Shown: piece after piece, positions 273-5,854 of the stretch | Numbering within the stretch: the stretch's first letter is position 1 | Layout of the letters: each line of letters begins with the position of its first letter | Source of the DNA: a virus | Lineage: Duplodnaviria; Heunggongvirae; Uroviricota; Caudoviricetes | Length of the DNA: 5,854 nucleotides | Virus record (IMG/VR): IMGVR_UViG_2703718791_000015 | Strand: one strand, 5' to 3' | The notes under the pieces: generated by a model | What the model saw: the letters and a program-made list of their open reading frames with translations, nothing else | What the model was told of the DNA's origin: nothing | Databases searched by the model: none | Translations under genes and position numbers: made by a program

Positions 273-2608
<2,336 letters not shown>

Positions 2609-2609
2609 G

Positions 2610-2634
2610 AAAAGCCCGGCGTTCGGGCTTTTCT
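2610..2634. terminator. Bidirectional rho-independent terminator between the convergent tail and helicase operons
   Basis: aaaaGCCCGgcgttCGGGCtttt: 5-bp GC stem (2614-2618 / 2624-2628), 5-nt loop, flanked by an A-run on one side and a T-run on the other, so a U-tract follows the hairpin on either strand. Sits between the spike stop (2608) and the glycosyltransferase-like stop (2655). Confidence 0.7.
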
Positions 2635-2654
2635 GTTATGACGGGTTCAATTTT

Positions 2655-3629
2655 TTATCCGTTACCGCGCGACGGTTTCTGCGTGATAAACGTCTCAAGC
2701 ATCTTTTCCGCAATTGCCGACCAGGTGTGACACTGGACCTTTTCAGCATTTTTCACGCGATCAACGCGAGCAATAACCTCATCCCAATCAATCCGCGACT
2801 TGATAACCATATGGTTCACCAAAGCCAGGCGATCTGGCGGAAGGCAATCGGACGGCGTTAATATCAACGCCCCACACATTGCCGCCTCAAGAACAGTTAA
2901 TCCAAGGCTTTCGGGATGCGTAACGATAAAAACGTCACTCTTACGCAATTCAGCTGCAAATTCGGTTGCTGGTACCGGCGTCCGTCTGTATGGAGTTACC
3001 GAAATATTCCCCGGATCAATGGTAACCAATCCGTCATCGGTCAACGTTCTGGCCTCATACGGAACAGTCAGACGCTGAAGGTTCATAAGGATACTTAAGG
3101 AGTGATCAAACCCACTAACATCAAATGCAGCGTGGTCTACAAAAATACGCAGAACATCGTCTGTTTTGGTTTCCAGATGGAACAGCTCCTGATTCGCTGC
3201 CCATCCAACATGTTTGTTAAAGCGATTATGACGCTCTAACCTGCCGGGATTATCCAGGTACCGCCAGGTATCATCGCGGACAGTAAAAGTAATATCAACT
3301 GGTGCTGAATCCAGCATAGAACCGTCGTATACCTGAGCTACCCATCCAGTGAATCGACGACGCAGTTGCACACCTATTTCCCTGGGCACCGTAGTAAAAT
3401 ACCGCAATCCTGGCGCTAAAATGGCTTTCGCAGAACACGAGAGCGCAGCGGTCAACACAGCTTCAACATAATCCTCCGGGCTTTCGACGCCGGGAGAATA
3501 TGGACGATGGTATTGCAATGTTACCCCAGCCTCACTAAAGGCGCAGGCCAGGTTGTAAGCCCACATTTCCGTATATGTTTTCACATCACTGATAGCTTCA
3601 AATTTTCGCCCAATGATCAGGATGTTCAT
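2655..3629 (-). CDS. GT-B fold glycosyltransferase-like protein (GT4-type E-x7-E motif); substrate unknown
   Basis: 324-aa ORF with SD AAGGAG 5 nt before the ATG (ATG = revcomp of 3627-3629); its start overlaps the upstream stop as ATGA. C-terminal SDVFIVTHPESLGLTVLEAAMCGALILTPSD matches the canonical GT4 motif (compare ESFGLVLLEAMAAGTPVIA); N-terminus MNILIIGRKF is a typical GT-B start. The call is by motif only. Confidence 0.6.
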   Translation of the reverse strand: MNILIIGRKFEAISDVKTYTEMWAYNLACAFSEAGVTLQYHRPYSPGVESPEDYVEAVLTAALSCSAKAILAPGLRYFTTVPREIGVQLRRRFTGWVAQVYDGSMLDSAPVDITFTVRDDTWRYLDNPGRLERHNRFNKHVGWAANQELFHLETKTDDVLRIFVDHAAFDVSGFDHSLSILMNLQRLTVPYEARTLTDDGLVTIDPGNISVTPYRRTPVPATEFAAELRKSDVFIVTHPESLGLTVLEAAMCGALILTPSDCLPPDRLALVNHMVIKSRIDWDEVIARVDRVKNAEKVQCHTWSAIAEKMLETFITQKPSRGNG

Positions 3630-3928
3630 TGCGTCTCCTTTTCCCTGACTAAAAGCTCATCCAGCTTGCTTTTATGTTTGAGCACATAGCCACATATTTT
3701 TCCTTTGGAGCTAATTTGCGGAATGGAATAATATTCCGAAAATACTAATTCAGCCTTTTCTAAGACAAGTGAAACACCATAGCGCGCAACATGTCTGTCG
3801 ATCATTTTTGCATCTCTGAGATTACCTTTAATTGATAGCCAGTCGTTGAGGTACATATGGTTGCGATTGGCTTTTTTCAGCATGTCGCTCAACCAATTTT
3901 TATTACGCTTAGTTAGTTTCCGTTGCAT
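3626..3928 (-). CDS. Small basic protein of unknown function, translationally coupled to the helicase (possibly the counterpart of P1 dbn by position; not verified)
   Basis: 100 aa starting MQRKLTKRNKNW..., rich in Lys/Arg. ATG (revcomp of 3926-3928) overlaps the helicase TGA stop (3928-3930) as TGATG; SD AGAGGA lies 6 nt upstream. The ORF track starts 1 codon earlier at a TTG. Confidence 0.65.
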   Translation of the reverse strand: MQRKLTKRNKNWLSDMLKKANRNHMYLNDWLSIKGNLRDAKMIDRHVARYGVSLVLEKAELVFSEYYSIPQISSKGKICGYVLKHKSKLDELLVREKETQ

Positions 3929-5292
3929 CAATAATCCTCTTGCCAGTCAGCACCAGCATAGTTATCAAACCGTGAGTATTGGCCGTTAAAAGCCAATCTC
4001 ACCGTGCCAATTGGGCCATTTCGTTGCTTACCGATAATCACCTCGGCAATGCCCTTCATTTCGCTATCCGGGTGATAAACTTCGTCGCGATACAGAAACA
4101 TGATCAGGTCTGCGTCCTGCTCAATTGCTCCTGATTCACGTAAATCTGAATTTACCGGTCGTTTGTCCGCACGCTGTTCAAGTGAACGATTAAGTTGTGA
4201 CAATGCCACCACCGGTACTTGTAATTCCTTCGCCAAAGCCTTCAGTGAGCGAGAAATCTCGGCAATTTCCAGCGTTCGGTTATCTTGCAGCTCGGGGACG
4301 CGCATAAGTTGCAGGTAGTCGATCATAATCATGCTCAAACCACCATTTTCTTTATAAACACGACGAGCGCGGGAACGAAGCTCTGTAGGTGTCAGGGCGC
4401 TTGAGTCATCAATAAAAATATTTTGCTTGTCCAACAGAATCCCCATTGCGCCAGAAACCCGCGCCCAATCCTCGTCGTTAAGTTGCCCTGTTCGAATACG
4501 AGTCTGATCAACGCGTGCAAGAGAAGCCAGTGAGCGCATCATCAGCTGGTGGCTCGGCATCTCAAGGCTAAAAACCAATACGGGCTTATAGTTACGGACT
4601 GCGGCATTTTCGACGAGATTCATCGCAAACGTGGTCTTCCCCATAGATGGGCGGGCGGCGACAATGATGAGATCGGACGGCTGAAGCCCTGCCGTCTTCT
4701 TATTGAGATCGGTAAATCCCGTATCAAGCCCCGTTACACCATCATGTGGTCGCTGAAACAACTCTTCTATGCGAGATACCGTTGCATCGAGAATGCTGGC
4801 GATATCTTTTGGACCACTACCGCTCTTTTGTCGTTTTTCAGCTATTTCAAAAACGCGGCGCTCGGCCATATCCAGCAATTCATTGCTGCCCCTGCCATCC
4901 TGCGCATATCCAGCTTCGGCTATTTCATTTGCGACGGAAATCATTTCACGAACAACCGCGCGTTCACGAACGATATCTGCATAAGCACAAATATTTGCCG
5001 CGCTGGGCGTGTTCTTTGACATCTCCGCAAGGTACGCAAAACCACCGGCGCGTTCTAATTTACCGTTCTGTTCAAGTGCTTCAGCAAGTGTTATCAAATC
5101 AATCGGTTTGCCATGACTTAATAACCTCTCCATCTCACTGAAAATTTCACGATGAGCACTGGTATAAAAATCATCAGCAACTATACGATCTGCAACTTCA
5201 TCCCAGCGGCAGTTATCAAGCATTAAGCCACCAAGTACAGCTTGTTCTGCACTAAGGGAATTTGGCATGGATTCAAGAGGGGATGCAGACAT
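3928..5292 (-). CDS. ban: DnaB-family replicative DNA helicase, phage-encoded paralog (P1 Ban-like)
   Basis: 454 aa from ATG (revcomp of 5290-5292) with SD GGAG 5 nt upstream; the ORF track's 5298 start is an upstream GTG. Walker A (ARPSMGKTTF) and long stretches that are near-identical to E. coli DnaB as I recall it (LQPSDLIIVAARPSMGKTTFAMNLVENAA, LEIAEISRSLKALAKEL, ALSQLNRSLEQRADKRPVNSDLRESG, IIGKQRNGPIGTVRL). A tail-gene and tRNA context means this is not chromosomal dnaB; the ban symbol is a best guess. Confidence 0.93.
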   Translation of the reverse strand: MSASPLESMPNSLSAEQAVLGGLMLDNCRWDEVADRIVADDFYTSAHREIFSEMERLLSHGKPIDLITLAEALEQNGKLERAGGFAYLAEMSKNTPSAANICAYADIVRERAVVREMISVANEIAEAGYAQDGRGSNELLDMAERRVFEIAEKRQKSGSGPKDIASILDATVSRIEELFQRPHDGVTGLDTGFTDLNKKTAGLQPSDLIIVAARPSMGKTTFAMNLVENAAVRNYKPVLVFSLEMPSHQLMMRSLASLARVDQTRIRTGQLNDEDWARVSGAMGILLDKQNIFIDDSSALTPTELRSRARRVYKENGGLSMIMIDYLQLMRVPELQDNRTLEIAEISRSLKALAKELQVPVVALSQLNRSLEQRADKRPVNSDLRESGAIEQDADLIMFLYRDEVYHPDSEMKGIAEVIIGKQRNGPIGTVRLAFNGQYSRFDNYAGADWQEDY

Positions 5293-5578
5293 TAGCACTC
5301 CACCCAGGCGTGCTGAATGTCAGATATAATCGGCATACTCAAATCACTCCTAACGATATGAGTCATCACCAGAAAATCAGGATTAATGCGCCGGACTCTT
5401 CCCGGCTGTCACACCGAATCGCCAGGATGGTGAATCCCTTTACCCGAGAAACAACAAACGGTGGCTTGCACATTCCGGCTACCTGGTTCGTTGCCTGAGC
5501 TAGGGGCAAGGTTCCCCCCTTTTAACGTCACCAGACCGCTAACGACGCATGTGCCAGACGCCGTGTTACAACCAAATA

Positions 5579-5654
5579 TGGTGGCCCCTACCGGACTTGA
5601 ACCGGTGACCGTGCGATTATGAGTCGCCAGCTCTAACCACTGAGCTAAAGGGCC
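5579..5654 (-). tRNA. tRNA with CAU anticodon, most similar to tRNA-Ile2 (lysidine-type, decodes AUA); elongator tRNA-Met not formally excluded
   Basis: 76-nt cloverleaf on the - strand: GGCCCTT-TA-GCTC-AGTGGTTA-GAGC-T-GGCGA-CTCATAA-TCGCA-CGGTC-ACCGG-TTCAAGT-CCGGT-AGGGGCC-A-CCA. 7-bp acceptor stem, 5-bp T stem, T-loop TTCAAGT, encoded CCA, anticodon CAT. Closely resembles E. coli ileX as recalled and is unlike E. coli elongator tRNA-Met. One non-canonical G27:A43 pair. Confidence 0.88.
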
Positions 5655-5657
5655 GGA

Positions 5658-5765
5658 TTACTGTTTCCTGAGTGCTTCTATGACGCCAGCAATACCGCCT
5701 ACAACTATGCCAGCAATGACAACGAGAACAATTGGATGCTTGTCAGCAAAATCCCAGAAGCCCAT
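5658..5765 (-). CDS. Putative small hydrophobic (single transmembrane helix) peptide, 35 aa
   Basis: Not in the ORF track (too short). Minus-strand ATG (revcomp of 5763-5765) to TAA (5658-5660) encodes MGFWDFADKHPIVLVVIAGIVVGGIAGVIEALRKQ. SD AAGGA lies 6 nt upstream, and the ATG overlaps the upstream ORF's TGA as TGATG. The stop is 3 nt from the tRNA 5' end. Confidence 0.45.
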   Translation of the reverse strand: MGFWDFADKHPIVLVVIAGIVVGGIAGVIEALRKQ

Positions 5766-5854
5766 CACTGATCCTTAGAAGCTGTTTTTAATATCGGCCA
5801 TACCAATGTTACAGCTACTGCCACCAATGAACCGCCCCGGAAATCCTGGAGACT
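5765..5854 (-). CDS. 3' end of an unidentified minus-strand gene entering from the right edge (last 29 codons only)
   Basis: Open frame from the window edge to TGA (5765-5767), C-terminus ...SLQDFRGGSLVAVAVTLVWPILKTASKDQ. Its stop overlaps the start of the small peptide ORF. Too short to assign a family. Confidence 0.35.
   Translation of the reverse strand, partial: SLQDFRGGSLVAVAVTLVWPILKTASKDQ

Follow-up and report, generated by a model that had tools for sequence, protein, structure and literature searches.

A conserved glycosyltransferase-like gene, dbn, and an accessory orphan gene downstream of the ban helicase gene in a P1-like phage-plasmid

We analyzed a stretch of viral DNA of 5,854 nucleotides (nt) (IMG/VR record IMGVR_UViG_2703718791_000015; hereafter, the window) that comes from a P1-like phage-plasmid and is ~98% identical to P1 and P7 over positions 348-5827, in two collinear blocks. 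Our subject is the pair of genes that lies downstream of ban, the gene for a DnaB-type replicative helicase. This interval consists of one known, conserved P1 gene (dbn) and one accessory orphan gene that occupies the slot after ban. The helicase gene, the small orphan gene, and dbn are neighbors by position and do not constitute a functional unit. The account that we consider probable is that two unrelated, nonessential genes happen to sit downstream of ban in a P1-like phage-plasmid. A bolder reading, which we offer tentatively, is that Dbn belongs with PmgO, PmgP, and PmgQ to an unrecognized phage glycosylation pathway that serves to evade host defense or to block superinfection, and that the orphan gene encodes an inhibitor of a host replisome or defense component. 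Such a pathway would be spread over P1-like, lambda-like, P2-like, and jumbo phages and would decorate virion proteins or a receptor glycolipid.

The arrangement described in a first-pass annotation of this DNA, three minus-strand genes chained by overlapping stop and start codons and equipped with Shine-Dalgarno sites, can be read directly in the sequence. The ban gene (3928-5292, minus strand) encodes a helicase of 454 amino acids (Pfam DnaB_C, 1e-107; DnaB, 3e-35) when its start is taken at the P1-equivalent ATG at 5292; the open reading frame (ORF) listing reaches further, to a GTG at 5298. At the DNA level, ban is 98.9% identical to the P1 gene. Its stop codon (TGA, 3930-3928) shares a TGATG at 3926-3930 with the ATG (3928-3926) of the small gene, which has 100 codons (3626-3928, minus strand). 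An ATGA at 3626-3629 then joins the stop of the small gene to the start of the 324-codon dbn (2655-3629, minus strand). By sequence reading, the small gene is preceded by AGAGGA (3935-3940, minus strand; 6 nt before the ATG) and dbn by AAGGAG (3635-3640, minus strand; 5 nt before the ATG).

Over positions 348-5827, collinearity with P1 and P7 is broken only once, by a 288-nt segment (3630-3917, no strand assigned) that carries the small gene and replaces 13 nt of these phages, as determined from blastn break points and alignment. The first-pass annotation had been undecided whether the two genes were equivalents of P1 genes such as dbn or an accessory insertion, and each option proved right for one gene. 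The 324-amino-acid protein is the equivalent of P1 Dbn, which was present in every P1-like phage record examined, whereas the 100-amino-acid gene, absent from both P1 and P7, is the accessory one.

The same annotation had proposed a helicase-coupled cassette of all three genes, and here the comparisons speak against it. Outside P1-like elements, homologs of Dbn never adjoin a DnaB helicase but adjoin homologs of PmgO, PmgP, and PmgQ, and we infer that the adjacency of dbn to ban is a peculiarity of P1-like genomes. In elements from Cronobacter, Pantoea, and Salmonella, the small gene follows the helicase gene and no dbn comes after it; therefore, the small gene is linked to ban and not to dbn. 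Nor does Ban need the small gene, as the Ban proteins of P1 and of the window differ only by A98S and Y235D. With these 2 substitutions separating the two proteins, co-variation between Ban alleles and the presence of the small gene gave no signal. As Ban hardly differs between elements that have the small gene and those that lack it, the small protein is no obligatory helicase subunit or loader.

Dbn and its association with PmgO, PmgP, and PmgQ

Over all 324 residues, the product of dbn shares 96.6% amino acid identity with P1 Dbn (AAQ14048.1) and 96.3% with the P7 protein called Glt, and it matches the phrog_2518 profile over its full length (residues 1-324, E = 1e-231). The gene follows ban and converges with baseplate gene 5, an order that is collinear with that of P1 and P7. 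Because Dbn was present in all P1-like phage records searched, dbn is a conserved gene of P1-like phages rather than an insertion. The window and P1 also share the terminator-like hairpin that follows dbn. In P1, however, dbn overlaps the ban stop directly and is annotated with 8 extra N-terminal codons (MQWNEEKP), whereas in the window the 100-amino-acid gene intervenes and dbn starts at an internal ATG with its own AAGGAG site. In a genome-wide CRISPR interference (CRISPRi) study, dbn was not required for plaque formation, which matches earlier results from deletions (PMC10695390).

The prediction that Dbn is a glycosyltransferase is not new; it was already in the 2004 annotation of P1. The P1 record labels the protein "function unknown, possible glycosyltransferase," and in other records it appears as a "glycosyltransferase family 4 protein." From sequence alone, the case is thin. 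The orthologous cluster that includes P1 Dbn has a precomputed match to PF00534, and NCBIfam gave no usable match to the protein. The structural case, made with a predicted model, is strong. The AlphaFold model, built with 54 homologs, has a mean predicted local distance difference test (pLDDT) score of 94.3 and a predicted template modeling score of 0.90, and it displays the two Rossmann-like domains of a GT-B fold. In a Foldseek search with this model (E = 1e-9, probability 1.00), the top matches were all GT4-type GT-B enzymes. The E-x7-E motif that the first-pass annotation had pointed out (PESLGLTVLEAAMCGALILTP) is present as E240 and E248, both invariant across the 54 homologs at identities down to 29%, and in a profile alignment these residues fall on the E-x7-E of solved GT4 enzymes (8xsg and MshA). 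Fold, invariant motif, and a weak Pfam match to Glycos_transf_1 thus bear out the earlier description of a GT-B glycosyltransferase-like protein.

Compared with retaining GT4 enzymes of the GT-B class, such as sucrose-phosphate synthase (6kih), BshA (6n1x), PimA (2gej), PimB' (3okc), and WaaG (8b5s), Dbn is only 10 to 15% identical and shorter (324 versus 360 to 480 amino acids). Its invariant residues are D102, W143, A144, D165, H166, D175, H238, E240, S241, G243, and E248, among which D102, W143-A144, D165-H166, and D175 are family specific relative to those enzymes. Lower in the list of fold matches are WaaG and WaaB, which act on the lipopolysaccharide (LPS) core; the alpha- and beta-glucosyltransferases of T4, which act on DNA; and GtfA, which acts on protein. 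The fold matches to the modeled Dbn single out no acceptor. The T4 enzymes matched less well than ordinary GT4 enzymes, and Dbn was not closer to the DNA glucosyltransferases than to other GT-B enzymes. We also considered 8xsg (Actinobacillus AmGGT) and the HY126 glycosyltransferase as clues to the acceptor and discarded them as merely further GT-B enzymes.

Three observations concern variation in Dbn and its distant relatives. Across 18 related loci, 9.7% of sites are variable in dbn versus 3.4% in ban. The 5' part of dbn (3348-3547) has 21 mismatches to P1 in 200 nt, versus 0 to 8 per 200 nt elsewhere, and the fact that this peak of divergence adjoins the 288-nt segment hints at a tract of recombination. 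The C-terminal half of Dbn (residues 130-323) matches, at 26% identity, part of a 552-amino-acid protein of two 320-kb jumbo phages (e.g., Stenotrophomonas phage RAS14; 4590-6248 in L013), which also encode a PmgQ-like protein ~12 kb away.

Relatives of Dbn at 36 to 57% identity were found in lambda-like contigs (L041 and L047), a P2-like element (L042/L043), the 116-kb phage IME392 (L012), and one further contig (L044). There was no DnaB helicase gene next to Dbn in any of these. Instead, outside P1 each Dbn relative is flanked by genes of three families: phrog_4603, phrog_2111, and phrog_1962. When the phrog_1962 neighbor was used as a tblastn query, it led to PmgQ of P1, and a PHROG scan of P1 proteins identified PmgO as phrog_4603 (E = 4e-74), PmgP as phrog_2111 (E = 3e-132), and PmgQ as phrog_1962 (E = 2e-127). 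By tblastn, the order PmgO-PmgP-Dbn-PmgQ is contiguous in L012, L041, L042/L043, and L047, and L044 has a rearranged set. In the cassette of lambda-like and P2-like prophages and of IME392, Dbn is 46 to 57% identical to ours and always adjoins the three partner families. The set of P1-like elements is split by comparison: in P1, dbn lies at 72.7 to 73.7 kb and pmgO-pmgP-ppp-pmgQ at 79.6 to 82.1 kb (~6 kb away), with tail genes between, and in the window dbn stands without its partners beside ban and the small gene. A 95-kb Citrobacter plasmid has the four genes split much as in P1. Among 50,697 phage records searched, all of those that match Dbn (22/22) fall within the only 30 that match PmgQ.

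The partners of Dbn resemble glycosyltransferases as well. GT8 enzymes were among the matches to the PmgQ family profile (AgtA, E = 5e-7; glycogenin, ~2e-4), which includes an invariant D-x-D. PmgO and PmgP gave weak but recurring matches to the MptE-like family PF01973 and to motifs of the sialyltransferase CstII. We infer a single pathway in which Dbn acts together with three other glycosyltransferase-like enzymes. A literature search for functional studies of Dbn or of PmgO, PmgP, and PmgQ returned only gene lists and CRISPRi essentiality data, and it returned no description of PmgO-PmgP-Dbn-PmgQ as a unit. That Dbn belongs to a module of four genes, which other phages carry as a contiguous block, appears not to have been described before. 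All four genes are nonessential in P1 by CRISPRi (PMC10695390).

Two further observations touch the module. In P1, pmgO, pmgP, and pmgQ (AF234172.1, 79592-82150; 1793-4351 in L045) are labeled "putative morphogenetic function," yet their homologs are glycosyltransferase-like. In addition, three large phage-like metagenome contigs (L003, L005, and L007) carry distant Dbn-like and PmgQ-like genes beside RecA and a DEAD-box helicase, in a sugar cluster with genes for a cytidylyltransferase/cupin protein, a polysaccharide pyruvyl transferase, GT8 and GT47 enzymes, and methyltransferases. This cluster may be a more elaborate version of the Dbn/Pmg pathway.

The small gene and its family

The 288-nt segment with the small gene was found in 52 of 438 P1-like plasmids and in 80 of the 457 complete Escherichia coli genomes that carry the junction, the junction itself being present in 457 of 5,426 genomes. 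The ORF was intact in all copies compared (19/19), in which the variable sites comprised 7 synonymous and 5 nonsynonymous ones. The small ORF thus behaves as a real gene, conserved and under purifying selection. As the first-pass annotation had noted, its product is basic, with an isoelectric point of 9.9 and 21 lysines and arginines versus 11 aspartates and glutamates.

Searches with the small gene placed it in a single, sparsely populated family. The phrog_12809 profile matches residues 1-100 of the protein at 1.9e-46. This family had 6 representative clusters in a database of 1.8 billion proteins and ~20 by profile search, the ~15 that the profile search added being all enterobacterial. The phrog_12809 family is thus tiny, fast evolving, and confined to enterobacterial phages. 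Eight diverse members share 15 invariant positions and an N-terminal motif, M-x-x-K-L-x-x-R-N-K. Two proteins of the family, gene_34 of Cronobacter phage JK004 and Av05_0060 of Escherichia phage Av-05, have the same length and N-terminal motif as our protein and are 34 to 39% identical to it; gene_34 likewise overlaps the DnaB stop, and Av05_0060 is part of an early region that has no helicase gene close by. Throughout the family, the annotation is "hypothetical." Other approaches recovered little. A sensitive blastn search of phage records with the DNA of the small gene returned nothing, with relatives emerging only in protein-level searches, and single-sequence searches of 5.8 and 1.8 billion proteins yielded almost nothing past close copies. 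Pfam, NCBIfam, and PADLOC gave no match to the protein.

A model of the small protein based on five sequences (pLDDT, 84.7) predicts three helices, three strands, and a C-terminal helix, with the invariant K4, R8, and K10 in the N-terminal helix. Comparisons detected no winged-helix or helix-turn-helix fold and no similarity, in sequence or fold, to the known loaders DnaC, lambda P, and DciA. Two candidate matches were rejected. A hit to 4rnf (a GGDEF-EAL linker; E = 0.72) in a PDB profile search was treated as chance, and a hit to P0081 (an actinobacterial repeat protein; E = 3e-4) was judged spurious and covered only a short hairpin at residues 65-92.

In four diverged P1-like lineages, the small gene directly follows a Ban-type helicase gene with an overlapping stop and start (TGATG or ATGA). 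Besides the E. coli lineage of the window, where the overlap is TGATG, these are "Candidatus Pantoea alvi" PSNIH6 (helicase, 76% identical; small protein, 46%), Cronobacter phage JK004 (82 to 83% and 34%), and a Salmonella element of ~97 kb (79% and 29%). Thus, the small-protein homologs are 27 to 46% identical where the accompanying helicases are 76 to 83% identical. The Salmonella element has a second paralog of the small protein 1.8 kb downstream. Elsewhere, the association with a helicase gene is missing: in Avunavirus phages, the small gene lies in early regions after an RlaP-like nucleotidyltransferase gene, and a 45-kb temperate-phage contig has it in a group of small early genes; neither context includes a nearby helicase gene. 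The existence of a fast-evolving small-protein family that is coupled to ban in several P1-like lineages and lost from P1 appears to be undescribed before.

The start of dbn as annotated in P1 (ATGCAATGGAA) is nearly the same as that of the small gene (ATGCAACGGAA). Therefore, the 8-codon N-terminal extension of P1 Dbn seems to be what remains of a small gene that was deleted. On this view, the small gene was probably ancestral after ban in P1-like elements, and its loss from the P1/P7 lineage may reflect a deletion that left its first 11 nt joined to dbn.

The region after ban resembles a slot for variable cargo. Varied small genes of unknown function take the place of dbn after ban in the Salmonella element (L048/L049, 4001-6526) and in the Cronobacter and Pantoea elements (L009, 4001-5559; L014, 6001-7603). 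In the Salmonella element, this run of small genes extends up to the convergent baseplate-hub gene.

Candidate functions of the two genes

The proposed activity of Dbn can be outlined as follows. The product of dbn would be a cytoplasmic GT-B glycosyltransferase with a GT4-type E-x7-E, presumably acting with retention of sugar configuration, as is typical for enzymes of families with this motif. It would draw on a host nucleotide-sugar, because P1 carries no sugar-activation genes, and add one sugar to a glycan that the four enzymes jointly build or extend. The other parts of the module would be PmgO (weakly CstII/MptE-type and sialyltransferase-like), PmgP (weakly MptE-type), and PmgQ (a glycogenin-like GT8 enzyme with DxD). 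As acceptor, either a glycolipid of the cell envelope (for instance, the LPS core, which P1 uses as its receptor) or a protein of the phage or the host would be likeliest.

Several points weigh against this account of the two genes. The assignment of Dbn as a glycosyltransferase is a prediction from sequence and model. The first-pass annotation had expected a profile match to Glycos_transf_1 (PF00534), and there is one, but it covers only residues 221-307 and scores 24.0 bits against a curated cutoff of 26.4 bits. By our reading, the invariant D165-H166 also appears to stand where GT4 enzymes usually have the "GR...KG" region that binds diphosphate. The link among the four genes is guilt by association, and all P1-like records together represent just one lineage. 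PmgQ-like genes are also found where Dbn is missing (phiNP, Chuche, Chlobot, and JK004). Furthermore, the window ends before the pmg region, and the module was recognized in P1 itself and in the 22 of 22 Dbn-positive phage records. As for the small protein, the conserved coupling of its gene to ban also fits a helicase-related role.

The acceptor can be argued in several directions. Dbn, alone or with PmgO, PmgP, and PmgQ, could possibly remodel the LPS core, as the first-pass annotation had suggested, or another envelope glycan, leading to superinfection exclusion or keeping progeny off cell debris. The enzyme families fit an envelope glycolipid acceptor, and the P1 record predicts sigma-70 promoters for dbn within ban. 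In lambda-like and P2-like prophages, the cassette neighbors genes for packaging and the head, either immediately upstream of the gene for the small terminase or immediately after the portal gene, which also counts in favor. Such positions are usual sites of accessory cargo genes. However, the fold matches do not favor LPS enzymes, the best ones acting on small molecules or lipids, and cytoplasmic enzymes would be unable to remodel existing outer-membrane LPS within one lytic cycle. With its C1 operator and late promoter, the pmgN-Q operon of P1 should not be expressed in lysogens, and we found no LPS phenotype reported in the literature. The late promoter, together with the tail genes beside the P1 pmg genes and the portal and terminase genes beside the cassette elsewhere, fits the view that the module glycosylates proteins, either of the virion, as in mycobacteriophages and chloroviruses, or of the host. 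We rate this view as somewhat doubtful. The best solved relatives of PmgQ, namely, AgtA (which acts on Skp1) and glycogenin, do act on protein-linked glycans, and domains of the MptE/DUF115 type occur in the Maf flagellin glycosyltransferases. Nonetheless, no mention of a P1 virion glycoprotein was found in the literature, all four genes are dispensable for plaque formation, and an acceptor cannot be predicted from membership in a glycosyltransferase family.

That Dbn glycosylates phage DNA as an antirestriction modification is very improbable and the least likely of the proposed roles, even though some distant Dbn homologs lie near RecA and helicase genes in large phages. The DNA glucosyltransferases of T4 are weaker matches to Dbn than ordinary GT4 enzymes are, and P1 is not known to have a hydroxylated or hydroxymethylated base pathway. 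Known DNA glycosylation depends on such a pathway (PMC13326640). The P1 regions examined contain none, and the same cassette is found in lambda-like and P2-like prophages.

For the small protein, host takeover or anti-defense is our preferred reading, drawn from its patchy presence, fast divergence, paralog in one element, small size, and position in an early operon; replisome modulation is the main rival. The gene would be translationally coupled to ban, and its product, a basic protein with a mixed alpha/beta structure in the model, may be an accessory protein that is expressed early and binds nucleic acid or some component of the host or the replisome. The rival holds that the protein serves the helicase, whether as a loader or adaptor, by modulating Ban, or by inhibiting host DnaB or DnaC so that the phage helicase takes over replication, in which case the real functional pair would be ban and the small gene. 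This seems unlikely. The start of the gene does overlap the DnaB stop in the P1-like lineages of E. coli, Pantoea, Cronobacter, and Salmonella, and a basic protein with K4, R8, and K10 invariant in its N-terminal helix would suit the role. But these four helicase-linked cases are all P1-like, so that the synteny may be simply inherited, and homologs in Avunavirus and the temperate-phage contig have no helicase nearby. In addition, P1, P7, and ~82 to 88% of P1-like elements are without the gene, yet their Ban is almost identical. Like DnaC, lambda P, DciA, and SPP1 G39P, the protein is small and is encoded beside, and co-translated with, a DnaB-family helicase; unlike these loaders, its gene lies downstream and not upstream of the helicase gene and is missing from most P1-like elements that have the same helicase. 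It also shows no sequence or fold similarity to them, nor to any solved fold.

P1 is widely used as a model phage and as a tool of E. coli genetics, and P1-like phage-plasmids are common. Regarded as one glycosyltransferase module, four P1 genes labeled "function unknown" or "putative morphogenetic" gain a testable handle, and the "pmg" labels may be misleading. Natural carriers and noncarriers of the small gene offer near-isogenic pairs for questions of host takeover and anti-defense. The module link and the ban-coupled small family are of modest interest and do not overturn current understanding.

Other features of the window

On the plus strand, the window contains a truncated baseplate gene 24, with genes 6 and 5 after it; the minus strand carries tciC, a tRNA gene (CAT), ban, and the 100- and 324-codon ORFs. 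Between dbn and the convergent gene 5 is a G+C-rich hairpin with an 11-bp stem (2609-2635, no strand assigned), whose 76-nt context folds at -20.3 kcal/mol (z = -3.7). The first-pass annotation had ended the operon at a hairpin terminator here. The hairpin is confirmed, but a strict terminator scan made no call at this site because the T-run is partly within the stem; we therefore label it terminator-like. It probably works bidirectionally.

A promoter-like site within ban (TTGAGA-16-GATGAT; 4538-4565, minus strand), found by scanning and by comparison with the P1 annotation, corresponds to "P2dbn" as predicted in the P1 record. It is a prediction only, and the promoter scan gave fewer sites than shuffled controls. 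The equivalent of "P1dbn" (TTGAAC ... TAAATT; 4149-4181, minus strand), likewise a prediction only, was mapped onto the window from the annotation of the P1 record. No C1 operator was detected in the window with up to 4 mismatches allowed; therefore, the operator that controls ban lies outside it.

The tRNA gene with anticodon CAT (5579-5654, minus strand) is a tRNA-Met according to ARAGORN, while the P1 record lists the equivalent gene as tRNA-Ile2 (ileX-like), a reading that would require lysidine modification. At the other end of the window, the 3' end of a transposase gene of an IS3-family (IS629-like) insertion sequence (IS) fills positions 1-350 and abuts P1 gene 24 at ~348, a junction that in its exact form was in no complete E. 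coli genome searched. The IS3-family element displaces the first 168 nt of gene 24, which is an essential baseplate gene; the phage-plasmid is therefore probably a defective phage. A fusion ORF that begins inside the IS element spans 273-965.

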